IMG/VR virus record: IMGVR_UViG_3300031820_000002
Span: 3,561 to 35,560 of that record
Direction: 5' to 3' (one strand)
DNA from: a virus
DNA length: 32,000 bases
Shown: piece after piece, positions 2,164 through 30,719 of the stretch
Position numbering within the stretch: the first letter of the stretch is position 1
Layout: the number at the start of each line of letters is the position of its first letter
The notes under the pieces: generated by a model
The model's database searches: none
What the model saw: only the letters and a program-made list of their open reading frames with translations
What the model was told of the DNA's origin: nothing
Made by a program: the position numbers and the translations under genes

Positions 2164-2167
2164 ATGT

Positions 2168-10270: not shown

Positions 10271-10300
10271 AAAAGGCCCTAGCGATTTGCTAGGGCCTTT
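10271..10300. terminator. Bidirectional hairpin terminator between convergent genes
   Basis: AAAAGGCCCTAGC-GATTT-GCTAGGGCCTTT is a perfect stem flanked by A and T runs. Confidence 0.6.
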
Positions 10301-11084
10301 AGTCGTTGCCGGCGTTGTTGCGTGCCCACGGGTAGTACTCGCGCTTGGCTTGGACCTGCGCAAACGTTGGCGCAGATCGATCGACAAGAACGAGCGCCGT
10401 CAAACGGCCACCGAACACGCATCCCGTGTCGATTCCATAACAGCCGTAGCCGTCATGGAGGTCGACGCGGGGATCTTCTCGGCTGTGAACAGCATGGCCG
10501 TAGATGACATTCTCTGGACCGCTCCAGCGCGTTCCCCACGGCACGGCGCCGGGCACCGACTCCAGGGGGTTCTTGTGGTTCGAGGCCATCTTCCCGGTGA
10601 CCGGATCGACATCACGAACACGACAGACCGTATCTTTGGCTTGGCCGTCTGGCCGAGTGCCATCGCATTCGAATCCAGCGTGAACGACGAGCCACGTCGG
10701 ACTGTCGTGCCCCAAACCGATGGTCTTGGGCATTGCTCGAAGGAAGTTGATGTCTTCGTCCGAGAGGGCCATGTGCTCTTGCATGCGCTGCTCATCGAAC
10801 CGCCGCATGGGGTTCTTCTTTGCCTCGCCTGACTTGATACGGTCCTCCCAGTTGCGCCAGCGGATGTGCTTCTCCTCGTGGTTGCCCATGACGCAGGAAG
10901 CTCCCAGCTCGCGCGCACGACGAACGCAGCCGACAGGGTCGGGGCCCCGATCGACAAGGTCTCCTGCGAAGACGAGGCAATCCTTCATGCCGTCCTCGCG
11001 GTATTCTACGACCTTGAGCAGCTCGTTCAGCTCCTCAAGGCATCCGTGGACGTCTCCAACTACTATGTACCTTTCGTAATTCAC
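10299..11084 (-). CDS. Calcineurin-type metallophosphoesterase (ApaH/PrpA/lambda-phosphatase-like)
   Basis: GDVHG, GDLVDRGP and GNHE motifs occur in the canonical order. Confidence 0.8.
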   Translation of the reverse strand: MNYERYIVVGDVHGCLEELNELLKVVEYREDGMKDCLVFAGDLVDRGPDPVGCVRRARELGASCVMGNHEEKHIRWRNWEDRIKSGEAKKNPMRRFDEQRMQEHMALSDEDINFLRAMPKTIGLGHDSPTWLVVHAGFECDGTRPDGQAKDTVCRVRDVDPVTGKMASNHKNPLESVPGAVPWGTRWSGPENVIYGHAVHSREDPRVDLHDGYGCYGIDTGCVFGGRLTALVLVDRSAPTFAQVQAKREYYPWARNNAGND

Positions 11085-13654: not shown

Positions 13655-13657
13655 TCG

Positions 13658-13731
13658 TGATTCCGGCAGGATTCGAACCTGCAAATTTTCTCTTTAGGAA
13701 AGAGGCGCCTTATCCATTGGGCTACGGAACC
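13658..13731 (-). tRNA. tRNA-Arg(CCT)
   Basis: Acceptor GGTTCCG/CGGAATC, anticodon loop TTCCTAA, T arm GCAGG-TTCGAAT-CCTGC. Confidence 0.85.
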
Positions 13732-13733
13732 AT

Positions 13734-13810
13734 TGGTACATCCGGCAGGATTTGAACCTGCGACCTTGGAGGTAGAAGCTCCCTGCTCTGGTCCACTGAG
13801 CTACGGATGC
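13734..13810 (-). tRNA. tRNA-Arg(TCT)
   Basis: Acceptor GCATCCG/CGGATGT, loop CTTCTAC, T-loop TTCAAAT, CCA encoded. Confidence 0.85.
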
Positions 13811-13842
13811 GCAGAGCATCCGCCGGAACAAGCTACGGATGC

Positions 13843-15681
13843 CTAAGCGACCTTGTCGTCCTCGGTCTGAGTCTCGACGGTTGCCTGGTCATGGGAACGG
13901 AAGACATTCTCCTCTGGAACGTCGTCATTGTCAAAGGCCAAGACGCCCTTGGTGGCACGACGAGTCGATGGGATGTACTGCGCGTTCTCGGGACCCTTGA
14001 CGTAGTCCTTCTTCCAGAACCTCTTAATCGCAAGCCATTCGCCAGGCTGAGGCAGCGCCATGTCACGCTCGCGCAGTTCGTTGCGAACCCACTCATCGAC
14101 AGGGCGGTCCTTGTAGATGCTGTACTTCTTATTGTCGAGATCAAGTTCCAGTTCGACATCCATCGGCGTGTAGCCACGATAGATTTTGCAGCACCAGTGG
14201 CCGCGCACATCAAATCGATGAGACAGCTTCGCGCGCAGCTTGCCGCCTGAGTATCCCTTGCTGATCTCCCTGATCACTTTGTCGCGCAGGTAGACCGTGT
14301 AGAACATCGGAGGGACGGCTTGCTTGATGCCGAGGTCGCCAAGCTTGTTCTTGAACTTGCTGATCGTGTGCAGGCTGGGCTTGCGCTGAGCGATGACGGT
14401 TGAGTGGTGATCGTTGATGCAGTCGACGAGCCCGTGCAGGACGAACGGCGCCAAACACAGCTTGTGGTTCCACATCACGAATTCCTGGACGTGGTGCGTA
14501 GAGATATGGAGGTTCATCTCCCAGGTCTCGCCGTGATCGATGTAGCCCTTGCTGATCAAAATCTCGTGATGCTCGCCGCTGGCCTCGGCGATGATGCCGA
14601 CGAGCATGTATTCACCTGGGTCAAGACCACGCGTCTCAGCCTGGAGCTGGGAAAGCGCAATTCCGCCTGTGAGCGCAAACCAGCAAGTGTCGAACGGAAG
14701 CTTGTCCGGGAACGGAAGGCGCTGCAGGGCTTCGGCCTGACGCTTGTGGAGAAGGATCCCCTCTTCCTCGGGAACGTCCACATGTCCCTCACGAGGGTCG
14801 TAGAACTTGAGATGGGCGATATCCTCGGTGACGTGACGGTCGACCGAAATATGCAGCTCGTTGTACGACTCCGGCGTGATCTCGAAGATGCGCGCTTTGC
14901 GAAGGTAGTTGTACATAGCCCCGCACTCGGTACGGAACTTCTCTTTGACCTTCTTGTTCCCCCAGTTCTGCTTGAGGGCGCGGAGAACCATCAGGTAGTT
15001 CTCGACGACGTACTCGTGGGCCTTGTTGTCGGGCTTGCCCCACCACGGCATCTCCTTTGGCTTCCACGGCAGCGGTCCGCCACCGATTTCTTCTAGAAGT
15101 GTAGGGATGCGCAGGATGCGCTCCATCTGAAGCTTGAGCCGGCTGGTCTCAGGAAGCCACTGCGGCGCCTTCGCGCGCAACGTTTTCAGCGTGTCTTCCC
15201 ATGCCCGCTGGATGCTGGAACGAAGCTCGTCGGCGGTGAACCTCTCGGCCTGCTCCAAGATCATGTTGATGATGCCACCGGGAAAATGGCCGCCATCATT
15301 GAAGTACAGCCAGTAGACGTCTTTCTCTTCGTCTTGGCGACGCGCACGCAAGAACCACATCCCCCACTTTTTGCGGAGGCTCTCGAACAGCAGCCGGTCG
15401 TTTTCCGAGACTCGGTAGCCGACCCATTGCTCACCGCTATCCAGCATGAGGCCGATGTATTTAGGGTTCGGCGACTTTGATGGCTTGTCAGCGTCGAGCT
15501 TGTCCTGCCACCGGATGGTGATGTTGCCCTCGGGGATTACCTGCTGTTCTGTCACAGGCCAGATGAGCTGAACGACGGGGTAGAGATAATGCGTCGCCCC
15601 CCTTGGACAAGGGACCGCATCCGCTCCGACACGGACGATGTTCTGTCCTTCGACGATGGGGGTGTCCGGGGTGACCTTCAT
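13843..15681 (-). CDS. Large hypothetical protein (612 aa)
   Basis: Longest ORF in the window, with varied composition and no motif I can name. The antisense ORFs are discounted. Confidence 0.6.
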   Translation of the reverse strand: MKVTPDTPIVEGQNIVRVGADAVPCPRGATHYLYPVVQLIWPVTEQQVIPEGNITIRWQDKLDADKPSKSPNPKYIGLMLDSGEQWVGYRVSENDRLLFESLRKKWGMWFLRARRQDEEKDVYWLYFNDGGHFPGGIINMILEQAERFTADELRSSIQRAWEDTLKTLRAKAPQWLPETSRLKLQMERILRIPTLLEEIGGGPLPWKPKEMPWWGKPDNKAHEYVVENYLMVLRALKQNWGNKKVKEKFRTECGAMYNYLRKARIFEITPESYNELHISVDRHVTEDIAHLKFYDPREGHVDVPEEEGILLHKRQAEALQRLPFPDKLPFDTCWFALTGGIALSQLQAETRGLDPGEYMLVGIIAEASGEHHEILISKGYIDHGETWEMNLHISTHHVQEFVMWNHKLCLAPFVLHGLVDCINDHHSTVIAQRKPSLHTISKFKNKLGDLGIKQAVPPMFYTVYLRDKVIREISKGYSGGKLRAKLSHRFDVRGHWCCKIYRGYTPMDVELELDLDNKKYSIYKDRPVDEWVRNELRERDMALPQPGEWLAIKRFWKKDYVKGPENAQYIPSTRRATKGVLAFDNDDVPEENVFRSHDQATVETQTEDDKVA

Positions 15682-15934
15682 GCGGACCTAGCTACAAGGC
15701 ATTTGGTCCGCGCTTTCATGAATCTGCGAAAACGCTTGCGCCGACCGTAGTTGTCACTTTTTTACGATTGGCTGTCAGATGCGACGCCCTGTGACCGTCA
15801 TGAGGGTGGAAGGCGCAGGTCTCATATCAGATAGACCTCGGCCGTTATGGATACAGAAAGGAGATAGGACGGCCGATTTTCTGTCCGATTGGTGTCACAC
15901 GGCGCGTCCAGAGAACGACAGGCAAACAGAACAT

Positions 15935-16126
15935 GCTCTCGCTGGAGAGATTCGACCGTCCGGGGTTATCGCGGAAGAAACCGGCTCTAGGCCGCACACC
16001 CATGCCTTCGGTACCTGCCGTTGGGATGGTAGCGGCAACCTGCGCAGGTCTGAGCTGGGGACCTGAGGCGTCTACAGGAAACCGGGAAATGCGGTCGTTG
16101 CGTGGGTTCGAATCCCACGGAGAGCA
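15935..16126 (+). ncRNA. Compact tmRNA-like RNA (tRNA-like domain plus internal region)
   Basis: The 5' end GCTCTCG..GGAGAGATTCGACCG contains the tmRNA GAUUCGAC motif. CGACCG pairs with CGGTCG at the 3' side (P2a-like). T arm GTGGG-TTCGAAT-CCCAC, then GGAGAGC pairing back to the 5' end. Confidence 0.55.
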
Positions 16127-16129
16127 CGA

Positions 16130-16411
16130 ATGGCAAAGAGGACTAAAAAAGAACAGCGCCAGCTGGAGGCCCAGTGGCGCGACGAGGAGGAGTACCTCAA
16201 GGAGGAGATAGAGCGCGACCTTGAGGAGAACGTGCGTCGTCTGTGGAAAACGACGCGGTGGTACCTCGGTCACGAGGAGTGGACCTTCTACCAGGGTTTC
16301 GAAGAGGACACCTGGTGCGGTTGCGACTGCAACAGGTGGAACCGCTTTGAGCTGCAGAAGGCGATCGATCGTCTACGAGCTTGGCGTGCCCGCAGGGAAT
16401 ACTGGATCTAG
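16130..16411 (+). CDS. Hypothetical protein
   Basis: ORF of 93 aa, charged at the N-terminus, with a W/C-containing C-terminus. Confidence 0.45.
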   Translation: MAKRTKKEQRQLEAQWRDEEEYLKEEIERDLEENVRRLWKTTRWYLGHEEWTFYQGFEEDTWCGCDCNRWNRFELQKAIDRLRAWRARREYWI

Positions 16412-16502
16412 CGGAAGACGGCGGAGTCGAACCGCAAGCGAGTTCATCACCCGCTCCATCCCGCTTCCAACGGGCTCAGGCTCCACAGCCTGTTCATCTT
16501 CC
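16412..16502 (-). tRNA. tRNA-Ser(GGA), class II
   Basis: Acceptor GGAAGAT/GTCTTCC, loop TTGGAAG, long variable arm, T arm TGCGG-TTCGACT-CCGCC, G73. Confidence 0.75.
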
Positions 16503-16506
16503 AGTG

Positions 16507-16716
16507 CTACCGACGTCTAGCACGTTTTTCCGGTAGCTGTATGACCTGATTGCTATTGCGGCTCGTTTTCACTGGGAGCTTCCTGATCTCGGCGAGGCGA
16601 CGGGGATGAGCCCGTTTGGCCTCTGTCGTCGTCCCGCACTGTTGGCAGTACGTGACGTAAGCATTTTCCGTGTCGTGAACGTCGAGGTGATCGTAGCCGC
16701 AATTGAAACACTTCAA
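16507..16716 (-). CDS. Zinc-ribbon protein
   Basis: CFNCG...CQQCG motifs. Last gene of the ligase/PrfH operon. Confidence 0.5.
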   Translation of the reverse strand: MKCFNCGYDHLDVHDTENAYVTYCQQCGTTTEAKRAHPRRLAEIRKLPVKTSRNSNQVIQLPEKRARRR

Positions 16717-16722
16717 GGTGTT

Positions 16723-17352
16723 TTAATCCCAGTCCCCTCTCAGGTACCTCTTGAGCTGCCACTGCTTGTTCAGCACGTGATCAGTGACAACGCCGTCCTG
16801 AGAACGGATCGTTCTGCGTTTGTCTCCCCGCATCCCCGAACCGACCTGTTCACGCCGCGAAGATGACGTTTGCGCAGAATGTTGGTTGTGTGCCGCATCC
16901 CAGAGTCTTGCTCGAAGAACCTCAAGCGCAGTTTCTTTGTTGCTGTGCTGAGATCTTTCAGACTCACATCTAACCGTGATCCCGCTCGGTATGTGCGTGA
17001 GCACGACGGCGCTATCCGTCACGTTTCGGTGCTGGCCGCCGGCCCCAGATCCACGACAGAATTTCCAATCCAGGTCGCCATCGTTGACGATGACCTGAGT
17101 CGGAGAGCGCTCGGGCAGAACGGCAACCGTGATGGTGCTGGTCTGCATCCGTCCACGCTTCTCGGTGGGCGGCACCCTCTGCCATCTGTGCCCACCTGAT
17201 TCGTTGGCAAACGCTACATCGGAGCCCTTGCCAGAGGCCTTGAAGACAAGAAGGCCTGGTCTCTCGCTCACGATTTCGAGGTCAAAGACCCCTCCGAGCC
17301 CCCATCTTTGCGTAGATCGCAAACTGGTCGCGAACGAGTAATTTGGCATCAT
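16723..17352 (-). CDS. prfH: PrfH-like (class I release-factor GGQ domain) protein
   Basis: GSGAGGQHRNVTDSAVVLTHIPSGITVRCESERSQHSNKETA is the RF GGQ/peptidyl-hydrolase domain. Trimmed to MMPNYSF (GAGGG box upstream), giving about 209 aa, a PrfH-like size. Confidence 0.7.
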   Translation of the reverse strand: MMPNYSFATSLRSTQRWGLGGVFDLEIVSERPGLLVFKASGKGSDVAFANESGGHRWQRVPPTEKRGRMQTSTITVAVLPERSPTQVIVNDGDLDWKFCRGSGAGGQHRNVTDSAVVLTHIPSGITVRCESERSQHSNKETALEVLRARLWDAAHNQHSAQTSSSRREQVGSGMRGDKRRTIRSQDGVVTDHVLNKQWQLKRYLRGDWD

Positions 17353-17410
17353 CGCCGCCCTCGGCGGCCCTAATTTCGACAAAAACCGACATCCACCGAC
17401 CATAGCCGAT

Positions 17411-17578
17411 TCAGATGTCTATGACAATAATCGTCGACTTAGGCTCTTCTTGTCGAGGGCGTTCCTCTGGTTCCCAGGGGTGATGCTCGATTTGCAGCGG
17501 GGCATGGATGTCCTGCTTTGGGCAATGCGGACAGTAATGCCAGGCTGGCCTCGCATGAGGGCATAGCGGTATGTCCAT
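17411..17578 (-). CDS. Small Cys/His protein (55 aa, hand-called)
   Basis: MDIPLCPHARPAWHYCPHCPKQD.... Fills the gap between the ligase and the prfH-like gene. Confidence 0.35.
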   Translation of the reverse strand: MDIPLCPHARPAWHYCPHCPKQDIHAPLQIEHHPWEPEERPRQEEPKSTIIVIDI

Positions 17579-17596
17579 ACTCAAAGTATAGCCCGT

Positions 17597-18214
17597 TCAG
17601 CTGTCGACGATCTTGCGACCTTCAACCTCGCCATATTTCGTCATGACGCGGTCGATCCATTTCTGGGTCTTGGCCTTCGACATGACGAGCTTATGTCCTT
17701 CTCCGCCTTTACCGACGACACCTTCTTCGGTGATGTCGGATATCTCTCCCTGTCGGACTTGGTCGACGAAGCCACGCGTCCATCGACGAGTGCCGAGAAA
17801 TCTGGGAATGTTGAGATGCTCGAACAGCTTGAGAAATTGTTTCGGGCCGAGAATTCCCTTCTTGTACGGATTCACATCGAACAGGGTTAGCTGTTTTTCG
17901 TCTTCAGGTTCATGGAGCCCAGCGAACGAGCGAGGTCCCCAGAATTCAGTGAAAACGATCATCCGTTCCCATCGCTCATCGCGTGCGACCTTGATCAGTG
18001 GTTCAGCGAGAGTTCTTTCAAACACGGCGATGGCGCCGCCGAACACCTCGTCGGTTTCGTCAAACAAACGAGTGCGAGTGCCGTGCTTGTACCAGCCGCT
18101 CTTCCTGGCCCACTCCCAACGCAGGTTGGAACCGTCGAGCTTGTCGAAGACGTAGGCATCGAATTCTCGAAAGTCCTGCCCAGTGCTTCGCGGGATGGAT
18201 GGATAGTCCTTCAT
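17597..18214 (-). CDS. ATP-dependent RNA ligase (Rnl2/PF09414-like nucleotidyltransferase domain)
   Basis: Motif I DKLDGSN (KxDGxN), motif III VFTEFWG, motif IV EGVVGK, motif V KAKTQKW, in the canonical order over 205 aa. Confidence 0.7.
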   Translation of the reverse strand: MKDYPSIPRSTGQDFREFDAYVFDKLDGSNLRWEWARKSGWYKHGTRTRLFDETDEVFGGAIAVFERTLAEPLIKVARDERWERMIVFTEFWGPRSFAGLHEPEDEKQLTLFDVNPYKKGILGPKQFLKLFEHLNIPRFLGTRRWTRGFVDQVRQGEISDITEEGVVGKGGEGHKLVMSKAKTQKWIDRVMTKYGEVEGRKIVDS

Positions 18215-18483
18215 TGAACGAGATCATCATCATGCAGCCGGCAGTAGCCGAGAGGCTCTCCGCCACCGCCGCAGGTGCAGTCAGCCTCTTCAAGGCAGCC
18301 TTCAGGAAGACAGACCGCCGAAAAAGGATAATCCGCCCGAGGGAGCACCTTATCCATCTCGACGATGTATAGATGACCGACGGACGGGAACGACGCGGCA
18401 ACCCCTCTGACTCGCCCACGACCCTTCAGGTCTGGTGTGTCGACGAAGACAAGCTGGTCTTGCCTGTACGTGTACTCGGCCAT
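18211..18483 (-). CDS. Hypothetical protein
   Basis: First ORF after the promoter box at 18511. Overlaps the ligase start by 4 nt. Confidence 0.45.
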   Translation of the reverse strand: MAEYTYRQDQLVFVDTPDLKGRGRVRGVAASFPSVGHLYIVEMDKVLPRADYPFSAVCLPEGCLEEADCTCGGGGEPLGYCRLHDDDLVQ

Positions 18484-18510
18484 TTACCCGGGGTATCAGG
18501 TGATGGTCGG

Positions 18511-18518
18511 ATTGTCAA
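18511..18518 (-). promoter_or_regulatory. -35-like TTGACAAT box
   Basis: Plus-strand ATTGTCAA, between tRNA-Ser(TGA) and the ligase operon. Confidence 0.5.
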
Positions 18519-18520
18519 GA

Positions 18521-18613
18521 TGGAGGAGAGCTGAGGAATCGGACCCCAACCGAGTTACTCACCCGGTCCCTTCCGCTTCAAACGGACGCCCGTCCCAGAC
18601 GGGTTAACTCTCC
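18521..18613 (-). tRNA. tRNA-Ser(TGA), class II
   Basis: Acceptor GGAGAGT/GCTCTCC, loop TTTGAAG, long variable arm, CCA encoded. The T-loop is an atypical TCCGATT. Confidence 0.75.
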
Positions 18614-18638
18614 AAATGCGGCCGAAGCCGCTACAGGC

Positions 18639-19193
18639 TCACTCGTCCTGCTGCTCGGTCAAATCCGAGGTCCAGTACAGGTACGACGCCCAGGCGTCAG
18701 GAGCTGACGTCTGGCTGACCTGGATGGTCATCACCGGTACCCAGTTCGGCTGCGCCGGCTTCGAAAGCAGACGCATTCCAGCCTGAGCCGGCGTGCGGTC
18801 TTTCTTGTCGCGGTTGCAGTCGTAGCAACAGGTGACGATGTTGCTCCACTCGGTCTTTCCGCCCTGCGCGCGGGGAGTGACGTGGTCGTACGTCAGATCC
18901 GCCATCTTGCCCTTCATGCCACAGTACTGGCAGGTGTACTTGTCGCGGGCGAAGATGTTGACACGAGAGAACTTGACCTTCTGCTTGTGGCGCCGGAACG
19001 CATTCAGCAGACGGACAACAGCGGGGATCTTGATGACGAGGCTGACCGACCGGACATCGTGGTCGTACTCCTCGATGACCTCAACCTTTCCCATCGTCAG
19101 TAGAGTGATAGCCCTCTGCCAGGAGATGGCCTTGATCGGCTCATATCCCTGAGAGAGCACAAGAGTTCGCAAATTCGTAGTAGCAGTCGACAC
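18639..19193 (-). CDS. HNH endonuclease
   Basis: CQYCG...DHVTPRAQGG...NIVTCCYDCNRDK. Confidence 0.85.
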   Translation of the reverse strand: MSTATTNLRTLVLSQGYEPIKAISWQRAITLLTMGKVEVIEEYDHDVRSVSLVIKIPAVVRLLNAFRRHKQKVKFSRVNIFARDKYTCQYCGMKGKMADLTYDHVTPRAQGGKTEWSNIVTCCYDCNRDKKDRTPAQAGMRLLSKPAQPNWVPVMTIQVSQTSAPDAWASYLYWTSDLTEQQDE

Positions 19194-19253
19194 GAGGGCA
19201 CCTCCTTTCGTTTGGTTCTATATCTACAATCGTAACAGATTTCGTTTTCAGGG

Positions 19254-19336
19254 TGCCCCGGGCGGGAGTCGAACCCGCACGCTTTTTACGGCGCTCGTTT
19301 TTGAAACGAGTGTGTCTACCACTCCACCACCAGGGC
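19254..19336 (-). tRNA. tRNA-Leu(CAA), class II
   Basis: Acceptor GCCCTGG/CCGGGGC, loop TTCAAAA, long variable arm, T arm GCGGG-TTCGACT-CCCGC. Confidence 0.8.
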
Positions 19337-19409
19337 GCACGCGACCGGAATCGAACCGGCAACCTTCCCGTTGCTTAGGCGGGATGTTCTACCTTTGAAC
19401 TACGCGAGC
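19337..19409 (-). tRNA. Atypical tRNA with a 9-nt anticodon loop CCUAAGCAA
   Basis: Good D arm (GTTC/GAAC) and T arm. The TCCCG/CGGGA stem encloses 9 nt. There is one acceptor mismatch, and the gene abuts tRNA-Leu with no spacer. Confidence 0.5.
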
Positions 19410-19452
19410 ATGAGCCGATTAAATCGTCTCTCTATTCGAATGTCAAAAGAGA

Positions 19453-19534
19453 TGGTGCCGGAATCGGGACTCGAACCACAATTTCTCTCGGCGCCTCACG
19501 GCGGCGAGCACATTATCGATATATGCTATCCGGC
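19453..19534 (-). tRNA. tRNA-like: either a D-armless Ser(CGA)-like tRNA or one whose anticodon arm is replaced by a GUGA-capped 9-bp hairpin
   Basis: Acceptor GCCGGA./.TCCGGC plus ACCA. Only two internal arms: CATAT-ATCGATA-ATGTG and CTCGCCGCC-GTGA-GGCGCCGAG. The T stem is weak. Confidence 0.4.
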
Positions 19535-19539
19535 ATTCG

Positions 19540-19653
19540 TGCGGATGGATGGACTCGAACCACCGACTCCCAAGTTATAAACCTGGTACTCTTCCTGGCG
19601 TCCTTGTTCACGTCGATTGCTCTTCGTGGGATCGCTCTCTGAGTTACATCCGC
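19540..19653 (-). tRNA. tRNA-Ile(TAT) interrupted by a 49-nt D-loop insertion
   Basis: Acceptor GCGGATG/CATCCGC. The D stem ACTC/GAGT is separated by 49 nt. Anticodon arm CCAGG-TTTATAA-CTTGG, T arm GGTGG-TTCGAGT-CCATC. Confidence 0.6.
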
Positions 19654-19658
19654 AGATG

Positions 19659-19734
19659 CGGATCGGGCGGGATTTGAACCACACAGTTCCCAGGGCTATT
19701 AACCCCGGGTGTTCTACCGTTGAACTACCGATCC
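19659..19734 (-). tRNA. Atypical tRNA (loop UUAAUAG, apparent anticodon AAT; weak T stem)
   Basis: Acceptor GGATCGG/CCGATCC, D arm GTTC/GAAC, 7-bp stem CCCGGGG/CCCTGGG. The T stem has only 2-4 pairs. Confidence 0.45.
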
Positions 19735-19740
19735 ATTTGG

Positions 19741-20094
19741 TTATTTGATCAGAGGGAAGTTTGACACCTCCTTCTTCACAAGGGATCGGTGGCACGGCAC
19801 GATGCCGATAGCCATAAGTTGACCATTCCAGGGAGCATCGGGCTCTCGGATGGCAACATGAGGAATGTTCTTCTTCTTGAGCTTCTGTTCGAGTCGAAGA
19901 AGCTCAAGCTCGCTGCGCGCACCAAGGGCAACCGCTCGTGTATCAGACGGAAGGTTGCCAGGGCTGCTCTCGCCTGCGGCGTGAATCAGCTGGGCGCAGA
20001 GGTCACCGATGGGAGCATCGAGGCGACCAATGCAGTAGTGGTAGAGGCAATTCTCGACGGAAACGACCGGAGAATCGTCTGGACTTGCAGGCAA
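19741..20094 (-). CDS. Pth2-family peptidyl-tRNA hydrolase-like protein
   Basis: At 117 aa, the spacing of AQLIHAAG...VALGARSELELLRLEQKL...HVAIREPD...LMAIGIVP resembles PTH2. Confidence 0.5.
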   Translation of the reverse strand: MPASPDDSPVVSVENCLYHYCIGRLDAPIGDLCAQLIHAAGESSPGNLPSDTRAVALGARSELELLRLEQKLKKKNIPHVAIREPDAPWNGQLMAIGIVPCHRSLVKKEVSNFPLIK

Positions 20095-20173
20095 CCACGC
20101 CGCCTGCGGGGCACTCGAAGCGTCAAGCTCGGGAAGACATCGTGGAAATGACGATAGGGCCGACCAGGAGACC

Positions 20174-20179
20174 TGTCAA
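20174..20179 (-). promoter_or_regulatory. TTGACA -35 box with TATCGT 17 nt downstream
   Basis: Plus-strand TGTCAA at 20174 and ACGATA at 20151-20156, upstream of the Pth2-like gene. Confidence 0.4.
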
Positions 20180-20181
20180 CC

Positions 20182-20493
20182 CTACTTCTCGACTTTCACG
20201 CAACGGCCGAAAATCGCAGAGGGAGCAACCCAGCCGTTGATGAATCCCTTGTTGTTGGCGATTTGGAATCGCTTATCGGCGCCGATGGCCCTGATGAGAT
20301 GGAAGAGCACCTTGCCGTTTACCTTGACGAGTACAACGTCACCAACGTTGAGTGAGCCGGCATCTGTCACCGGCTCCACGGTGCAGAGGTTCCCGTCATC
20401 CACCTTGCCCGTCATTGAATTGCCGCGAGGCCGGAACTGAACGGTTTCTCCAGCCTTCAGCTTCGCGATATGTCCTGTTGCCCATCCATCCAT
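20182..20493 (-). CDS. S24 (LexA/UmuD-like) peptidase-fold protein
   Basis: RGNSMTGKVDDGNL..V resembles the GxSM Ser motif, with a downstream Lys region (ANNKG). Confidence 0.5.
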   Translation of the reverse strand: MDGWATGHIAKLKAGETVQFRPRGNSMTGKVDDGNLCTVEPVTDAGSLNVGDVVLVKVNGKVLFHLIRAIGADKRFQIANNKGFINGWVAPSAIFGRCVKVEK

Positions 20494-20510
20494 TGCTTGT
20501 ACCTACAAAT

Positions 20511-20690
20511 CTAGAAGCAGCAGCTATCACGGTAGTGACACTTTGGGCACTTCATATGCGCGTGTTCGGGCACTAACGGGATATTGCAGGTTGGACAGGA
20601 GATATCCGGGTCACATGTAGCGCCTAGAAGACGCTCAAGTTCCGCTACATCCACGAATCTAGGTTCCGCCTTCTTTTTCTCGTCTGTCAT
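20511..20690 (-). CDS. Zinc-ribbon protein
   Basis: Start trimmed to MTDEKKK to clear tRNA-Leu. Contains CPTC...CPKC. Confidence 0.5.
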   Translation of the reverse strand: MTDEKKKAEPRFVDVAELERLLGATCDPDISCPTCNIPLVPEHAHMKCPKCHYRDSCCF

Positions 20691-20693
20691 TTG

Positions 20694-20776
20694 TGTCACC
20701 GACTGGATTCGAACCAGCACGCCTTGCGGCACCAGCACCTCAAGCTGGCGAGTCTACCAAGCTCCTCCACGGTGAC
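20694..20776 (-). tRNA. tRNA-Leu(GAG), class II
   Basis: Acceptor GTCACCG/CGGTGAC, arm CCAGC-TTGAGGT-GCTGG, long variable arm, T-loop TTCGAAT. Confidence 0.85.
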
Positions 20777-20780
20777 GTAA

Positions 20781-21998
20781 CTACTTCTTGTACTTGCCGA
20801 TGCCGAAATGGTCAGCAAGTGTCTTCTTCACGTCTTCGAAGATCTCGTTCACGGAGCGGTTCATGTCGAGCGTAACGACGTTCGACATGTCGCCGAACAG
20901 CTTCTTGTACTCGACGTCGCAGGCATGCGCGTATTTGACGGCACTTTCCTCTGCGCTCTGTGAGTATCCGATGTCCATGCCGGCGGCGTAGTAATTGGGA
21001 ACGCCCTTGTCTTTCATGATGCGCTCGAACGCCAGCCGAACTGGTGCGATGCAGTGGAAGATCAGATCGGGCTTCCGCATGCCACTGTAGACGTAGTTCA
21101 GAAGCTGCGTGTCTACGCCGCGAACCTTGTCTCGTACGTACGAGGTGTAGATATAGCGATCTGTGACGACGATGTTGTTCTCCTGCAGAGCAGGAATCAC
21201 ATCGTTTTCGTAGCGAGTGATCATGTCAGCCGCGTGCAGGATGCTGAACATGACCGGCGTCAGAAGTTTTTTCTTCTTGGCCTTCTTGATCGTCTTGCCG
21301 AGCAGCTTTGACGAATTCCACTTGGTGGTGGCGACGTCGTATCCGTGATCATCTAGCCAGTCGACGAGATGCTCCGTTTGAGTCGTCTTGCCCACGCCAT
21401 CCACGCCCTCAAATACGATGAAGAGTCCTTTGTCGGTTTTCGTCTTGGCGTTGAGGATGTCGTTGACCTGGTCGTCGATGATATCTTCGACGAGGGCGCC
21501 TGGTGCCCGCATGATTGCTTCAACCGTCTTGTGGTGGGCGAAAGCGAAGCTCGCAGCATGGTGAATGCGGGCGTTGTCCTGGAAGGCCATGTGCGGCAAC
21601 TTGCCAATGGAGCACCACTTCGCCTCGGCGGCGTCAGATCCGGCCTTTGCTTCCGCGTTCGGCTTAACCTTGGCCCAGAACGTCACCCCTGATTTGTTGT
21701 GTCCGAATTCCGGGTATCCTGGATTCCACGGGGCAAGAAGGTGCAGCTCCTTTAGGTGAAGGCCGGTTTCTTCTTTGGCTTCCCTGCGAGCGCCATCTTC
21801 AACGGTCTCGTATTGCTCGACATGACCGCCGGGTAGAGCCCACCAGCCCTTGAACGGGGCGCCGCCACGTTTGGTGATCAATACTTCGATGCCGTTCTGA
21901 GGGTCTTCGCGGAAGATGGCCACGCAAGCAAGGACGCCAGTATCATTGGACGTCATCTCGCGAAGCTCGTCGCAAACCCGTCTCAACGACGTAAGCAT
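20781..21998 (-). CDS. tmk: Nudix hydrolase - thymidylate kinase fusion protein
   Basis: N-terminal Nudix box GGHVEQYETVEDGARREAKEETGL. C-terminal FIVFEGVDGVGKTT P-loop plus TDRYIYTSY (DRY motif) of dTMP kinase. Confidence 0.8.
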   Translation of the reverse strand: MLTSLRRVCDELREMTSNDTGVLACVAIFREDPQNGIEVLITKRGGAPFKGWWALPGGHVEQYETVEDGARREAKEETGLHLKELHLLAPWNPGYPEFGHNKSGVTFWAKVKPNAEAKAGSDAAEAKWCSIGKLPHMAFQDNARIHHAASFAFAHHKTVEAIMRAPGALVEDIIDDQVNDILNAKTKTDKGLFIVFEGVDGVGKTTQTEHLVDWLDDHGYDVATTKWNSSKLLGKTIKKAKKKKLLTPVMFSILHAADMITRYENDVIPALQENNIVVTDRYIYTSYVRDKVRGVDTQLLNYVYSGMRKPDLIFHCIAPVRLAFERIMKDKGVPNYYAAGMDIGYSQSAEESAVKYAHACDVEYKKLFGDMSNVVTLDMNRSVNEIFEDVKKTLADHFGIGKYKK

Positions 21999-22000
21999 GA

Positions 22001-22210
22001 TCAGTCCGAGTAGCCCTTAACGCCACGGCGCGGGATGTTCACATCGTCAGGGGCTTTGGTCTTCAGCTGCTTCTTGCCTTGCTGACGGAGGTAGCGGGTA
22101 GCTCCGCGTTTGGCTTCCTTGCTGGCACCGGGGCTGCGCTGAAACGCAGCACGCAAGGAGCCGCGCATCAAAGCCTCGGTGCGAATGTCTTCGATCAGCT
22201 GCTTGAACAT
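22001..22210 (-). CDS. Hypothetical basic protein
   Basis: ORF of 69 aa, coupled to its neighbours. Confidence 0.4.
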   Translation of the reverse strand: MFKQLIEDIRTEALMRGSLRAAFQRSPGASKEAKRGATRYLRQQGKKQLKTKAPDDVNIPRRGVKGYSD

Positions 22211-22464
22211 TAGCGTCGACCTCTCTCATACCAGTCGCTGCACATTTCATCGAGCGGCCAGCTGGGAAGTTTATGGCTGCCGCCATTCCAGCGAGCGTAG
22301 TGAGGAGACCCGCAGGAATGCTCCTTTACGTTCACGAAACGGCAGTTGGCGCAGGAAGATCCACCTTTTGGAACCCTCAGCAACGCCTTATGGTCGGACG
22401 GGAATGTCTCCGCGTTAGTCTCGCTAAGCACGCGACGAGATTCGTGGATGATCCATCCGAACAC
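22210..22464 (-). CDS. Hypothetical Cys-rich protein
   Basis: ORF of 84 aa containing CANCRF...HSCGSPHY...MCSDWY. Confidence 0.45.
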   Translation of the reverse strand: MFGWIIHESRRVLSETNAETFPSDHKALLRVPKGGSSCANCRFVNVKEHSCGSPHYARWNGGSHKLPSWPLDEMCSDWYERGRR

Positions 22465-22520
22465 CTCGCTACACTATTCCAACAGATCCGTGCTGTCAAA
22501 CCTCAGCAAACACACGGTTT

Positions 22521-22598
22521 TGGTACCGACGAGGGGATTCGAACCCCTACTGCTCAGATCCTAAGTCTGACGCCTCCTACCAGTTGGGCTACGTCGGC
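22521..22598 (-). tRNA. tRNA with anticodon TAG (Leu by anticodon) but a short variable loop
   Basis: Acceptor GCCGACG/CGTCGGT, arm TCAGA-CTTAGGA-TCTGA, 5-nt variable loop, T arm AGGGG-TTCGAAT-CCCCT, CCA encoded. Confidence 0.7.
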
Positions 22599-22606
22599 AA
22601 AATCTT

Positions 22607-22683
22607 TGGTACCCCCGGCCGGAGTCGAACCGGCACTGGACCAGGCTTAAACTGGATGTCTCCTACCGTTGGACTACGAGGGC
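22607..22683 (-). tRNA. tRNA with anticodon TAA (Leu by anticodon) but a short variable loop
   Basis: Acceptor GCCCTCG/CGGGGGT, loop TTTAAGC, T arm GCCGG-TTCGACT-CCGGC, CCA encoded. Confidence 0.7.
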
Positions 22684-22868
22684 AAACACAACTCTAGCGG
22701 GACCTTTTGCACGATAATGGTGTTGCCGCACCGAAAGAAGTAGGTTCTTCCATCGTGGGAATCGGCGTCTGCAAGCGCTTGCGCGGCTGCCGAAGATGGC
22801 CCCAGGATTCTGGCCGTTGCCTCTAACACGTCCCTTGAGACCTTCGTCAGCTTCTTGCGTACTGCCAT
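22674..22868 (-). CDS. Hypothetical protein
   Basis: ORF of 64 aa. Its 3' end overlaps the tRNA by 10 nt. Confidence 0.4.
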   Translation of the reverse strand: MAVRKKLTKVSRDVLEATARILGPSSAAAQALADADSHDGRTYFFRCGNTIIVQKVPLELCLPS

Positions 22869-23138
22869 TTAGTTCACCGGAGCTGTGTTGAACCCCATCT
22901 GGATGAGCGCGTTGCGCAGGTTGCGGAAGTTGGGGTTCGCACTGTTGACGGTTGATGCCGCCAACTCGATGTATCCAACCAGGGATTCATTGTCGAGTTC
23001 GTCGATGCGGGCTCCGGTGAAGAGAACGGCATCATGGAGCAGGCTGTAGCAATGACGCTTTTGGTCGTCACGCTTGCACTGACGCTGAAGGTCAGCCATC
23101 TGAGCCTGCATCCGCTTGACCTTATCTTGAATCGACAT
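22869..23138 (-). CDS. Hypothetical protein
   Basis: ORF of 89 aa starting 3 nt downstream of tRNA-Val. Confidence 0.45.
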   Translation of the reverse strand: MSIQDKVKRMQAQMADLQRQCKRDDQKRHCYSLLHDAVLFTGARIDELDNESLVGYIELAASTVNSANPNFRNLRNALIQMGFNTAPVN

Positions 23139-23140
23139 CT

Positions 23141-23216
23141 TGGTACCCCCGGCAGGGATTGAACCTGCGACATCCGGCTTGTAAAACCAGCGCTACTTCC
23201 ACTGAGCTACAGGGGC
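23141..23216 (-). tRNA. tRNA-Val(TAC)
   Basis: Acceptor GCCCCTG/CGGGGGT, loop TTTACAA, T arm GCAGG-TTCAATC-CCTGC, CCA encoded. Confidence 0.85.
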
Positions 23217-23249
23217 AAGGTCCGTCATTTTCATCAAGTGACCAACTTT

Positions 23250-24089
23250 TTAGATGGGCGCCCGCAGCACATCGCGGACATCGTAGCTGAGGCTGTTCCA
23301 CCACTCCAGCTCCGCCTTGGTGAGCTTCTTGTAGTACCGCCACACACCGAAGACACGATGCTCGGTGGAGTAGGTGCGCCACCAACCATTGTCTCCGAGG
23401 GAGCGGAATCCCGGCGAGCTGTACTTCTCGACGAGAGCAGCCGGCGTGGTCTCGACACGGCGGTGGAGGTCGTGGGAGATGTGGCAGCGACCACGGATGG
23501 CCTTGCAGGTATCCCAACGATCGACGTCATCGTGGAGCGCCCAGGCGTGGGGCTTCCAGCCGCTGTCGATCACCTTCCGGTCACGAGCAAAGGCGAGAGC
23601 CTGCGCCAGGGACGGACCGCTGTATCCGCTCTGCCATACACGACGGTAGCGCTTGCCACGGTCCTGCAGCAGTCCCTCATCGTCGATGAAGAAGCGCTGG
23701 CTGCGGTAGTGCGCCAGAGCATCGCTCGTCGTGCCAGCACCCTCCACCTCGGTCAGCATGTGCTGATTGACGATGTGCCAGGCGCTGAGCTTGCGAGTAT
23801 CGAACGTCCCCGCGAGCTTGCTGCGGACATCATCCCAGCGCTCGCCGCAGTGGCTAGCAAGCCAGCCGTAGCAGGGACCGAGATTGTCCGTGAAGCCCTT
23901 GTGGACCTTGTTGCGAGGCTCCGGGTCGGAATCCTCGGCGGCGTCGATGTCGAAACGCACGTTATCGAGCCAGACCTTGGTCCGGCTGCGCTCGTGACGG
24001 TGCGACTCGTTGCGCTCGTCTTTGTTGTGCTTATAGCGTCCGCCCTCGACGGCGGACCTCGAAATATCCTTGGTTGCCATGTACGTCAC
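23250..24089 (-). CDS. Hypothetical protein (279 aa)
   Basis: W/R/K/D-rich varied composition. The antisense ORF 23238-24128 (V/A/L/G/P-rich) is discounted. Confidence 0.55.
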   Translation of the reverse strand: MTYMATKDISRSAVEGGRYKHNKDERNESHRHERSRTKVWLDNVRFDIDAAEDSDPEPRNKVHKGFTDNLGPCYGWLASHCGERWDDVRSKLAGTFDTRKLSAWHIVNQHMLTEVEGAGTTSDALAHYRSQRFFIDDEGLLQDRGKRYRRVWQSGYSGPSLAQALAFARDRKVIDSGWKPHAWALHDDVDRWDTCKAIRGRCHISHDLHRRVETTPAALVEKYSSPGFRSLGDNGWWRTYSTEHRVFGVWRYYKKLTKAELEWWNSLSYDVRDVLRAPI

Positions 24090-24261
24090 TCCTGGAAATG
24101 CACTGCAAGTTCGCTAACTTACATGTGATTTCAGTAGTGCCGCGCATTGGTGTTTCCTTGGACTTTCGGTTGGTTTCTACGAGAGAGGCTTGCTTACCGT
24201 TGCTCCCTTCCGGGCCTGGCGGGGTTCACAAGTTGAATGCACCCTAATGGACGAGCGGCGC

Positions 24262-24269
24262 ATTGTCAA
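24262..24269 (-). promoter_or_regulatory. -35-like TTGACAAT box
   Basis: Plus-strand ATTGTCAA. Leaves a leader of about 140 nt before the 24089 start. Confidence 0.45.
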
Positions 24270-24276
24270 GAATTAG

Positions 24277-24405
24277 TCTGGCAGTGAAGAGTCGAACTTC
24301 TGTTTGATAACCGTTTCCGGTCGGTTCGCGAACGAACAAAGAAGTGGTCACGGAGCGCTACAGGCTTGCGCCTGCACCCTAGGGCCCTCCTAGGGAAGCT
24401 GCCAG
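24277..24405 (-). tRNA. tRNA-like RNA: acceptor and T arm, with the core replaced by three hairpins including module copy 1
   Basis: Perfect 7-bp acceptor CTGGCAG/CTGCCAG and T-loop TTCGACT. Internal hairpins are CCCTAGG-AGGGC-CCTAGGG, CAGGC-GCAA-GCCTG and the GTTCG-TTCG-CGAAC module. Confidence 0.5.
24307..24348 (-). repeat. Structured RNA module copy 1 (closed-P1 form)
   Basis: Sense ACCACTTC-TTT-GTTCG-TTCG-CGAAC-CG-ACCG-GAAACGG-TTATC. Confidence 0.6.
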
Positions 24406-24407
24406 AT

Positions 24408-24540
24408 TGGTCGACAGGGTCGGGAATTGAACCCAACTACCACCAGTCCCTTGGTAACCATAAATCTACGGTTCACCGAAGCGAACAAAGAGCGATCCAC
24501 GGCGTTTTTTACTGGTGCTCTACCGTTGAGCTACCTGTCG
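24408..24540 (-). tRNA. Interrupted tRNA (63 nt between the anticodon-stem strands, containing module copy 2)
   Basis: Acceptor CGACAGG/CCTGTCG plus ACCA, D arm GCTC-AACGGTA-GAGC. The CCAGT...ACTGG stem is split by the insert. T-loop TTCAATT. Confidence 0.55.
24453..24502 (-). repeat. Structured RNA module copy 2 (closed-P1 form)
   Basis: Sense CCGTGGATCGCTC-TTT-GTTCGC-TTCG-GTGAAC-CG-TAGATTTAT-GGTTACC. P1 has a G.U pair valid only on this strand. Confidence 0.6.
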
Positions 24541-24541
24541 G

Positions 24542-24612
24542 TCCCCCACGGAAGAGTCGAACTTCCGTCCTTCGCTTATCAAGCAACCGCTCTGCCATTG
24601 AGCTAGTGGGGG
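24542..24612 (-). tRNA. tRNA-Ile(GAT)
   Basis: Acceptor CCCCCAC/GTGGGGG, D arm GCTC/GAGC, loop TTGATAA, T arm GGAAG-TTCGACT-CTTCC. Confidence 0.8.
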
Positions 24613-24668
24613 TTGTTACAGATCTTTGTGCGTTTGTTCCAGATCCAGATCGGGGATAGCCTTTGATC

Positions 24669-24827
24669 ATGCTGATCGCAATCTGGCCACTCGTCATCGC
24701 CGTCATTGGCGCCCTTGTGTACGCGCTTGCGAGTAACTCGAAAGCGGCTGAACTTGGCCGCCTCGTGTTCTTCTGCGGGTTCTTCTGGCTGGTGTACAGC
24801 CTCGTTGGACACACGCTGAAGATGTGA
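24669..24827 (+). CDS. Small two-helix membrane protein (52 aa, hand-called)
   Basis: MLIAIWPLVIAVIGALVYALASNSKAAELGRLVFFCGFFWLVYSLVGHTLKM. Plus-strand gene nested in the minus-strand tRNA array. Overlapping minus ORFs run into tRNAs. Confidence 0.5.
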   Translation: MLIAIWPLVIAVIGALVYALASNSKAAELGRLVFFCGFFWLVYSLVGHTLKM

Positions 24828-24830
24828 TCG

Positions 24831-24903
24831 TAGGACTGGCTGGATTTGAACCAGCTACCCCGCGCTTATCAAGCACGTGCTCTACCAAGTGAGCTACAGT
24901 CCC
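24831..24903 (-). tRNA. tRNA-Ile(GAT), second copy
   Basis: Acceptor GGGACTG/CAGTCCT, arm CGTGC-TTGATAA-GCGCG, T arm GCTGG-TTCAAAT-CCAGC. Confidence 0.85.
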
Positions 24904-24913
24904 AAACTGAAAG

Positions 24914-24997
24914 TGCCGGTGACAGGGGTCGAACCTGCCTGGCCTTGCGGCCACTGCGCCCTGAACGCAGCGTGTCTACCAAATCCACCACACCGGC
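24914..24997 (-). tRNA. tRNA-Leu(CAG), class II
   Basis: Acceptor GCCGGTG/CACCGGC, arm CTGCG-TTCAGGG-CGCAG, variable arm TGGCCGCAAGGCCAG. Confidence 0.85.
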
Positions 24998-25098
24998 AAA
25001 AGGGAAGTCCGTGAGTGTGCTGCTACGCCAAATGCTCTAAGGGCTGTTTCGGCCGTCGGGGCTCTCGCACTTCTGCGTTCGCACTGCTTCCCCTCAGA

Positions 25099-25125
25099 CC
25101 CGCATTTCCTCTCGTACTGCGCGGG
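25099..25125 (-). other. Sarcin-ricin-loop-like hairpin
   Basis: Sense CCCGC-GCAGUACGAGAGGAAAU-GCGGG. The 12 nt AGUACGAGAGGA (complement of 25107-25118) equal 23S 2654-2665. Confidence 0.75.
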
Positions 25126-30186: not shown

Positions 30187-30191
30187 AAGGA

Positions 30192-30255: not shown

Positions 30256-30257
30256 CG

Positions 30258-30710: not shown

Positions 30711-30719
30711 TAATATTCG

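Follow-up and report, generated by a model that had tools for sequence, protein, structure and literature searches.

What kind of RNA is encoded at positions 15935-16126 of a 32,000-nt stretch of viral DNA, the whole of which is called the window here (IMG/VR virus record IMGVR_UViG_3300031820_000002, positions 3,561 to 35,560 of that record)? A preliminary description, made from the letters alone, had taken this plus-strand locus for a divergent phage tmRNA (transfer-messenger RNA) or for a mimic or decoy of one, and this interpretation was supported in part. In this study, the locus proved to be a conserved small RNA gene of uncultured giant/jumbo phages of one clade, and we class its product as a tRNA-derived mimic RNA. 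We incline, with a little more belief than doubt, to the view that the product is a stable tRNA-like small RNA of 158-192 nt, derived from tRNA-Leu and processed like a tRNA, which acts with p93, the protein encoded behind it.

All of the elements that had been described at this locus are in the sequence and are not there by chance. The RNA starts with GCUCUCG-CUGGAGAGAUUCGACCGUCCGG and ends with CCGGGAAAUGCGGUCGUUGCGUGGGUUCGAAUCCCACGGAGAGC-A, followed by CGA and then by ATG. The pairing of CGACCG (15953-15958) with CGGUCG (16092-16097), its extension by UCCGG (15959-15963) with CCGGG (16082-16086), the T arm cGUGGG-UUCGAAU-CCCACg (16101-16119), the length of 192 nt, the pair U3-A70 and the lack of an encoded CCA (the trailer is CGA) were all found as reported. 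GAGAGC (16120-16125) pairs with GCUCUC (15935-15940) and is followed by A at 16126, but the proposed stacking is better read as a 6-bp acceptor stem on a 6-bp T stem, with G7 unpaired in every member of the family. The gene lies on the strand opposite to all 39 tRNAs called by ARAGORN in the window, between a 612-aa open reading frame (ORF; 13843-15681, minus strand) and tRNA-Ser(GGA) (16411-16502, minus strand). The stability of the RNA by itself was unremarkable (z = -1.93 for the minimum free energy, MFE). It is the comparison with homologues, not thermodynamics, that is decisive for the reality of this RNA.

The homologues were found through the contigs of metagenome p93 homologues and through one pattern scan of metagenome contigs. 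The family alignment consists of 12 distinct sequences of 158-192 nt from one phage clade, namely the window and 11 others (L107, L065, L102, L064, L066, L068, L067, L071, L145, L144 and L147), the identical pairs L102/L113 and L147/L148 being counted once. A covariance model of the family, R1, was searched in the window and 24 related jumbo-phage loci; known members scored 122-180 bits and everything else at most 26 bits. The related loci L001-L024 held no further members, and the lower-scoring matches of R1 there were ordinary tRNAs. DNA patterns of the family brought up no member, either in IMG/VR or in a collection with one genome for each prokaryotic species, 68 of their 72 matches in metagenomes were chance, and blastn of the window locus against GenBank phages returned nothing. 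The parts of the RNA, with their behavior in the 12 sequences, are as follows.

15935-16126, plus strand: tRNA-like small RNA gene, 192 nt.
15935-15940, plus strand: 5' strand of the acceptor stem, GCUCUC, pairing with 16120-16125 (100% paired in the 12 sequences).
15941-15952, plus strand: connector G-CUGGAGAGAUU, a 12-nt unpaired remnant of the D region with no D stem, unpaired in all members.
15953-15958, plus strand: 5' strand of helix P2a, CGACCG, pairing with 16092-16097 (100% paired; four of six pairs change on both sides).
15959-15963, plus strand: 5' strand of helix P2b, UCCGG, pairing with 16082-16086 (4-5 bp across the family).
15964-16081, plus strand: variable arm with a CGC/GCG helix, an internal loop, a CCGGCUC/GAGCUGG helix and a long hairpin (15991-16036).
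15991-16032, plus strand: frame formerly proposed as a tag, AAHPCLRYLPLGW and stop; not a supported feature.
16082-16086, plus strand: 3' strand of P2b, CCGGG, paired.
16087-16091, plus strand: conserved bulge AAAUG, which separates P2b from P2a on the 3' strand (4-7 nt, usually A-rich, in all members).
16092-16097, plus strand: 3' strand of P2a, CGGUCG, paired.
16098-16100, plus strand: 3-nt linker UUG at the variable-loop position.
16101-16119, plus strand: T arm, a 6-bp stem with the 7-nt loop UUCGAAU (100% paired; four of six pairs change on both sides).
16120-16125, plus strand: 3' strand of the acceptor stem, GAGAGC, which with G16119 reads GGAGAG, Shine-Dalgarno-like, 5 nt before the p93 ATG.
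16126-16129, plus strand: discriminator A, then the trailer CGA.

The four defined helices (acceptor, T stem, P2a and P2b; 22 pairs) were 97% paired across the 12 sequences, against 34-50% in a control in which the 3' partners were slid. Double-sided changes occurred in 11 of the 22 pairs, and none of 500 column shuffles attained the observed values; the covariation analysis was first run on nine sequences and repeated on 12. The acceptor stem appears as GCUCUC/GAGAGC, GCUCUU/AAGAGC, GCUCCU/AGGAGC and GCCCUG/CAGGGC, with pairs 3:70, 5:68 and 6:67 changing on both sides and G1-C72, C2-G71 and C4-G69 invariant. The T stem varies as GUGGG/CCCAC, GAUGG/CCAUC, AGGGG/CCCCU and UCAGG/CCUGG; its loop-proximal pairs G52-C62 and G53-C61 are invariant in the 12 sequences, and the T loop is canonical (UUCGAAU, UUCGAUU, UUCGAGU or UUCAAGU). 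These two helices add up to 12 bp, the number found in tRNA. P2a reads CGACCG/CGGUCG in the window, CGUCCG/CGGACG in L066, CACCG/CGGUG in L067 and CCUCC/GGAGG in L144. In P2b, a U-G pair becomes U-A in some members and the C-G pairs are invariant, L064 having CCGA/UCGG. The connector positions G7, C8, U9, G10, G11, G13 and A16 were invariant in the first nine members and are kept in the three added later. The bulge is usually A-rich (AAAUG, AUAUG, ACAUG, AAUA, AUACG, GAAUG, AAAAA and others). Eleven of the 12 members have A as the discriminator and L064 has G; the trailer is CCA in L064 and L066, CGC in L144 and CGA in the other nine. These 12 homologous sequences and their covariation show a genuine, conserved, structured RNA with tRNA-like ends, as had been surmised.

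The interior of the RNA (approximately 85-118 nt) evolves fast and its frame does not: the mean identity between sequence types is 73% in the frame (the first 29 and last 46 alignment columns) and 36% in the interior. The identity of p93 across homologues is 47-81%. The D stem and the anticodon arm are gone, and a long irregular arm stands in their place. In sequence types IV and V, this interior is predicted to be one nested irregular rod with 14 covarying pairs (RNAalifold, nested folds only), running through P2a, P2b, (U/C)GC/GCG, GC/GC, the internal loop CGAAGAA / GACCAGAA, a 6-8-bp helix and a variable tip hairpin. In type I, a rod-like nested fold is the MFE fold; it shares the internal loop, which is purine-rich (GGAAGAA / GGACCUGAG), and the helix that follows it, CCGGCUC/GAGCUGG. 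The MFE folds of single sequences gave inconsistent interiors and were not relied on as a structural guide.

Motifs of the interior are less general than its outline. The 9-mer GGTTATCGC, earlier pointed out as the box of a recurrent module, is present in the RNA (three copies in the window against 0.22 expected), but it is not conserved across the family. The sequence GAUUCGAC is replaced by CUACAUCAC or CUAAAUCAC in L067, L071 and L145 and by GAUUCCUC or GAUUCCUU in L144 and L147, and GGUUAUCGC is confined to the window and L107; neither GAUUCGAC nor GGUUAUCGC defines the family. Several other features of the locus were considered and dropped. Short stretches of the interior resemble 16S helix 45 (AACCUGCG) and the 23S sarcin-ricin loop (GGACC.GAG); these likenesses, seen by eye, were judged compatible with chance. 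An amber-suppressor-like loop, CUCUAGG, in type I loses its stem in L102 and L107 and is absent from the other types. The minus-strand ORF 15845-16273 and the plus-strand ORFs over the RNA had no homologues in L001-L024, and the length variation of the RNA homologues (158-192 nt) breaks their frames.

Is this RNA a tmRNA? Its architecture is indeed closest to the tRNA-like domain plus P2 of tmRNA (ssrA, RF00023 and the permuted forms): the acceptor stem is stacked on a T arm with a canonical loop, the 3' end is of the tRNA type, the D region is an unpaired loop with GG and no D stem, and a long P2-type helix replaces the anticodon arm, running from just past the D-like loop to just before the T arm. 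GAUUCGAC, present in types I-III, is a further likeness, although it is not conserved in five members. However, the RNA differs from tmRNA in lacking G3:U70, a conserved frame or stop and an smpB gene nearby. Its body is predicted to be a rod and not a ring, with no sign of pseudoknots in the nested-only folding, and its length is 158-192 nt, compared with roughly 350 nt in the preliminary description and 363 nt for E. coli ssrA.

Membership of the tmRNA family did not stand, since ARAGORN and all Rfam tmRNA models were silent in the window and the homologous loci. ARAGORN made no tmRNA call there and called the positive control, E. coli ssrA, with its tag ANDENYALAA; in the window and L064-L069, no Rfam tmRNA family matched at the gathering threshold or at E <= 10, even with 211 nt searched. 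The sole plus-strand Rfam match on the RNA was that of its T arm, which the tRNA model scored at 14.6 bits (threshold 29). When R1 was run on E. coli tmRNA with filters off, the T arm alone was aligned, with 10.2 bits. The exact 15-mer GGAGAGATTCGACCG had 39 matches in IMG/VR, all of them chance matches inside coding sequence with no tmRNA nearby, and this probe was set aside.

A miniature tmRNA could still be imagined, one that carries an amino acid other than alanine, enters stalled ribosomes and offers a short internal frame as a tag for trans-translation. The layout described above would suit it, as would the neighboring genes with a flavor of ribosome rescue (an RF1/PrfH-like factor and Pth2) and a GCN codon 4-12 nt past P2b in each sequence type; tmRNAs are also known from huge phages (PMC7162821). 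We nevertheless consider it very unlikely. Besides the silence of ARAGORN and Rfam in every member while the ssrA control works, pair 3:70 is U-A in ten members and C-G in two and never G-U, so that the identity pair of tmRNA is missing in 12 of 12, as the earlier reading had remarked for the window, although the tRNA-Ala of the same phage retains G3:U70. Three-frame translations of all members revealed no reading frame common to the five sequence types and no conserved stop codon. The only shared frame start is GC(G/C)-GAA-GAA in types I, IV and V, which counts for the miniature tmRNA, but this frame ends after 5, 12 or 31 codons, runs on without a stop in L144 and has GUG as its first codon in L102; types II and III have no frame in common with types I and IV. 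The 13-codon frame at 15991-16032, formerly suggested as a possible tag, exists, but it sits wholly in the hairpin 15991-16036, from the first to the last base pair, and the other family types encode no peptide related to AAHPCLRYLPLGW. The closing helix of this hairpin changes from GCCGC/GCGGC to GCCAU/GUGGC in L065 and L102, a compensatory change, so the conservation there is structural. With a spacing of only 4-12 nt between P2b and the first GCN codon, no room was found for the pseudoknot PK1, and a predicted nested rod suffices for the interior of types IV and V, so that no need for pseudoknots was seen (nested-only folding). No SmpB domain was found among the 34 window ORFs scanned with Pfam, and p93 showed no similarity to SmpB. 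The RNA carries no tag template and is not a tagging tmRNA.

Jakobid mitochondrial tmRNAs are tag-less, tmRNA-derived RNAs in which only the tRNA-like part is kept, and we mention them as a lead only. Another reading for the phage RNA is a second kind of tRNA-like RNA that enters ribosomes, a tag-less, leucine-accepting analogue of the tRNA-like domain on a rigid arm, in which p93 would replace SmpB, the RNA would enter ribosomes stalled or damaged during infection and accept the nascent chain, and Pth2 or the RF1-like factor would resolve the peptidyl-RNA. We give this a slightly slimmer chance than the miniature tmRNA. If it were true, the p93-RNA rescue pathway would be phage-encoded and independent of alanine charging and tagging.

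If the architecture is closest to tmRNA, the sequence has its nearest counterpart in class II tRNA-Leu. In a set of 357 tRNAs that included 55 tRNA-Leu, nine of the 13 top-ranking non-family matches of R1 were tRNA-Leu (hypergeometric p = 1.2e-5). Neither tRNA-Ser nor tRNA-Tyr appeared in the top 33; therefore, the signal is not a general class II effect. The parts shared with tRNA-Leu are the acceptor stem with G1-C72 and C2-G71, the run C-U-G-G-N-G-A-N-A-U just past it (which contains U8-G9-G10 of class II tRNA-Leu), the T arm, A73 and the tRNA-type trailer. In the model alignments, the connector aligns with N7-U8-G9-G10..G12 of class II tRNA-Leu, and the acceptor 5' strand GCCCUGG of L144 and L147 is identical to that of tRNA-Leu(CAA) in the window. 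In contrast to tRNA-Leu, the RNA has no D stem, anticodon arm or Leu anticodon and carries a structured arm of 100-135 nt instead, and its acceptor/T stack is 6+6 bp, not 7+5, with G7 unpaired. It is not a cloverleaf of the RF00005 kind, with no ARAGORN call and only the T arm matched, but it does possess a tRNA-type minihelix, discriminator and 3' trailer. Judged from this sequence kinship, the RNA most probably descended from a class II tRNA-Leu.

The 3' end also points to tRNA-type maturation. The N73-CGA trailer of the RNA also follows many tRNA genes of the phage, such as Arg(CCU), Val(GAC), Gln, Gly, Ser(GCU) and Ala, which argues that the RNA is matured like those tRNAs. Other tRNA genes of the phage encode CCA (tRNA 3' ends, window 13657-31845), and several phage tRNAs carry A34 anticodons (AAU, AAG, ACG and AGA). 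LeuRS, like AlaRS and SerRS, ignores the anticodon and relies strongly on A73. For this reason, leucine is the likeliest amino acid, should the RNA be charged at all; the RNA has A73 and sequence kinship with tRNA-Leu, it may be leucylated, and LeuRS is our best guess for the enzyme.

An alternative that starts from the same tRNA-Leu-like head is an interrupted gene from which a normal decoding tRNA is spliced; it would be a tRNA-Leu that contains a large intron, or else a member of the group found at 25.9-26.3 kb of the window. The window does have insert-bearing tRNA-like modules, and two of them have GGTTATCGC in common with the RNA. This alternative is hardly credible to us. The flanks of the insert yield no D stem or anticodon stem-loop in any member; the insert does not resemble a group I intron and is not long enough for one, and no intron or ribozyme is recognized there by Rfam; GGUUAUCGC is found nowhere in the family outside the window and L107; and R1 gives no match to the modules, which have the D and anticodon arms that the RNA lacks. 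The preliminary description was right to keep the two apart.

The modules are worth describing for their own sake. Three of them, each of approximately 135 nt and not called by ARAGORN, lie in tandem at 25868-26283 (minus strand). In each module, the acceptor stem and the D arm are followed by a spacer of approximately 30 nt that contains a GNRA hairpin; a second D-like arm comes next, and then the anticodon and T arms. The anticodon loops include CUAUUAA and CUAGAAC, one module encodes CCA, and the hairpin GUUCGG-GCAA-CCGAAC covaries to GUUCAC/GUGAAC. Only their 3' two-thirds align with the Rfam tRNA model (19.7 bits), and related copies of the motif occur at 29527-29621. One possibility is that the modules are tRNAs that carry an insert of a new type at position 26/27. 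Next to them, at 26287-26359 (minus strand), is a tRNA-like gene with the anticodon loop CUCAUAA (CAU) and an aberrant D arm, which ARAGORN missed and which scored 25.6 bits in Rfam against a threshold of 29.

What does the RNA work with? The gene for p93 follows all 12 RNAs within 2-41 nt, and two motifs lie upstream.

16130-16411, plus strand: p93, the gene of a conserved 93-aa protein, always following the RNA.
15770-15780, plus strand: upstream motif GGCTGTCAGAT, a possible phage promoter element.
15901-15909, plus strand: upstream motif GGCGCGTCC, 26 nt before the 5' end of the RNA.

The homologues of p93 in metagenomes form 18 clusters, and the proteins of the family have 86-94 aa and are predicted to be helical. 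The AlphaFold model of p93 is a helical hairpin with a Cys-containing knuckle (pLDDT 77). No match to p93 was found in Pfam, PHROGs or NCBIfam, or in PDB by fold or sequence, and peptide patterns returned nothing from IMG/VR; identification of p93 as SmpB, ArfA or a known RNA-binding fold was dropped for lack of any sequence or structure match. In the close relatives L002 and L003, the interval from the RF gene to the 612-aa gene contains neither the RNA nor p93; an unrelated minus-strand gene occupies the syntenic site. Since both are missing together, the RNA and p93 behave as one cassette. In L147, this cassette adjoins a PolyA_pol-family gene (the type of CCA-adding enzymes; 376-1080, minus strand).

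CTGTCAG(A/G/T) lies upstream of the RNA in eight of the 12 members, including the window, where it occurs once; it was not seen in the upstream sequence examined of L065, L068, L102 and L107. GG(C/T)GCGTC(C/T) stands 14-26 nt before the mature 5' end in most members (L068 has GGTGCGAGC at this site, and the motif of L066 is farther upstream), and GGCGCGTCC is not recurrent in the window. In six members, the two motifs are combined as CTGTCAG(A/G/T)-N11-13-GG(C/T)GCGTC(C/T), located 14-26 nt before G1. Both are farther out in L066, and approximately 120 nt separate them in the window. No sigma-70-type promoter was found upstream of the RNA. A terminator-like hairpin with a T run is located at 16504-16533 (plus strand), just past the antisense side of tRNA-Ser(GGA), and could be the end of the RNA-p93 transcript.

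The position of the RNA directly upstream of p93 raises another explanation, a cis-acting leader with no function in trans, whose fold recruits RNase P or the 3'-end machinery, or hides the Shine-Dalgarno sequence, and thereby sets the 5' end and the translation of p93. The p93 start codon lies 2-4 nt past the discriminator in seven members (3 nt past the RNA in the window) and 7-9 nt past it in three, that is, within 2-9 nt in 10 of 12, and in the window, L107, L067 and L145, GGAGAG of the acceptor 3' strand precedes the ATG by 5 nt. The 5' strand can also pair alternatively with GGAGAG at positions 10-15, a possible switch. We regard this explanation as unlikely. In L066 and L068, the p93 start lies beyond a hairpin and has a Shine-Dalgarno sequence of its own, outside the RNA, and L144 and L147 have CAGGGC instead of GGAGAG; therefore, the Shine-Dalgarno overlap is not general. 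Covariation backs the acceptor stem, whereas the alternative 5' hairpin CUCUC/GAGAG is tolerated in every member only through wobbles or a register shift and has no compensatory support, and we rejected it as a switch. A processing signal would also need neither a 100-nt arm with conserved loops nor the invariant G1-C72, C2-G71, C4-G69 and connector, and p93 occurs without the RNA at four loci.

We return to the reading that we favor, a tRNA-Leu-derived stable RNA acting with p93. In this reading, the RNA and p93 would be co-transcribed from their own conserved upstream element. RNase P and the tRNA 3'-end machinery would release the RNA, which would be completed to CCA, so that the stable RNA ends with N73-CCA. 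The same 3' cut would leave, in most members, a p93 message with a leader of 2-9 nt, nearly leaderless. The mature RNA would be a tRNA mimic that acts via its acceptor end, and a synthetase indifferent to the anticodon may charge it. Together with p93, it would probably form a ribonucleoprotein in the tRNA, translation and RNA-repair program of the phage. Our confidence in these steps falls from release as N73-CCA, through the nearly leaderless p93 messenger RNA and the acceptor-arm mimic with p93, to leucylation.

Several points weigh against this reading. Processing, CCA addition and aminoacylation of the RNA are all inferred. The Leu assignment rests on likeness to tRNA-Leu genes plus A73; the RNA is without the D stem and tertiary core known to be used by LeuRS; and one member, L064, has G73. 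The interior fold of types I-III is tentative. Four p93 homologues (L069, L143, L146 and L149) have no RNA upstream, and therefore p93 is not strictly dependent on an adjacent RNA. In addition, the 3' acceptor strand of the window doubles as the Shine-Dalgarno sequence of p93, which fits a purely cis-regulatory role as well.

The window contains at least 39 tRNA genes, and the following genes lie near the RNA or elsewhere in the window.

16723-17403, minus strand: truncated RF1-like factor of 226 aa, without the N-terminal domains.
17597-18214, minus strand: RNA-ligase-like ORF of 205 aa.
18639-19193, minus strand: HNH endonuclease.
19741-20094, minus strand: Pth2.
25489-25863, minus strand: cREC_REC.
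10299-11084, minus strand: metallophosphoesterase.

An S24-like peptidase and a NUDIX-thymidylate kinase fusion also belong to the cluster 16723-21998 (minus strand). This cluster, together with 10299-11084 and 25489-25863, has a flavor of translation rescue and RNA repair. Of the PrfH-like and Pth2-like neighbors named in the preliminary description, Pth2 was found, but the release factor is closer to the C-terminal part of RF1 than to PrfH. A tblastn search with the 612-aa neighbor protein against GenBank phages gave nothing.

Such a neighborhood would also suit a decoy or sponge, in which the acceptor-arm mimic, charged or uncharged, soaks up a tRNA-processing enzyme or a host defense factor that attacks tRNA acceptor ends or T arms and so protects the large tRNA set of the phage. 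The conserved tRNA-like head with a body free to vary agrees with this, and so does the location in a tRNA array beside RNA-repair genes (ligase-like, cREC_REC and metallophosphoesterase). Jumbo phages have been described as investing in tRNA repair and in countermeasures (PMC7824862). However, the strict linkage to p93 and the conserved internal loops of the arm would be left unexplained. We think it distinctly improbable, more so than a cis-acting leader.

How does the RNA compare with other known systems? YrlA (RF02553), a Y RNA-like RNA with Ro/Rsr partners, resembles it in joining a tRNA-like module to a long protein-binding stem with conserved bulges. In YrlA, the 5' and 3' ends of the RNA meet at the distal end of the long stem, and a loop caps the acceptor-like stem. 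By this layout the topology is permuted, since the ends of the phage RNA are at the acceptor stem. RF02553 had no match on the RNA, and no Ro/TROVE gene was found among the scanned window ORFs. Y RNA-like RNAs are known in phages, where they are tied to RNA repair (PMC7824862). In mascRNA/menRNA (RF01684) and tRNA-mRNA co-transcripts, a tRNA-shaped element likewise abuts a transcript whose end would be defined by end processing of that element. However, mascRNA/menRNA are small, cloverleaf-like and eukaryotic, whereas the phage RNA has a large conserved arm, lies upstream of a protein gene and has no Rfam match to them. Phage T4 encodes small stable RNAs without a known function among its tRNA genes, 'species 1 and 2' (rnaC and rnaD), which we again mention as a lead only. 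Overall, the RNA fails defining features of tmRNA, tRNA and YrlA and is not in Rfam.

Phage tRNA arrays are usually read as a codon supply or as a replacement of tRNAs destroyed by the host. The RNA described here keeps only the end of a tRNA that enzymes and factors recognize; the decoding part has been dropped, and a dedicated protein neighbor has been gained. These features suggest that giant phages use the tRNA shape for something other than decoding, beside RF-like, Pth2 and RNA-repair genes. If the RNA is aminoacylated, it would be a natural case of anticodon-independent charging of a non-tRNA other than tmRNA. Because the RNA is absent from Rfam and invisible to ARAGORN, similar RNAs have probably been missed in phage annotation. 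With 12 sequences, a covariance model and a protein partner at hand, charging, processing and binding are directly testable.

Some further observations concern the window and the related loci. In the tRNA array, 24189-24232 (minus strand) is a partial match to RF00169 (bacterial small SRP; model positions 24-66) with 40.7 bits against a gathering score of 40, and it may be a phage-encoded 4.5S-like hairpin. At 388-3133 of the window, paralogous repeats of 227-300 nt, 70-74% identical, occur in a 455-aa ORF, in a 321-aa ORF and upstream, which suggests a small family of duplicated genes with no Pfam match. In two related jumbo-phage loci, L020 (17568-17639) and L024 (3664-3727), there are amber-suppressor-like tRNAs with a CUA anticodon, which ARAGORN labels 'Pyl'.

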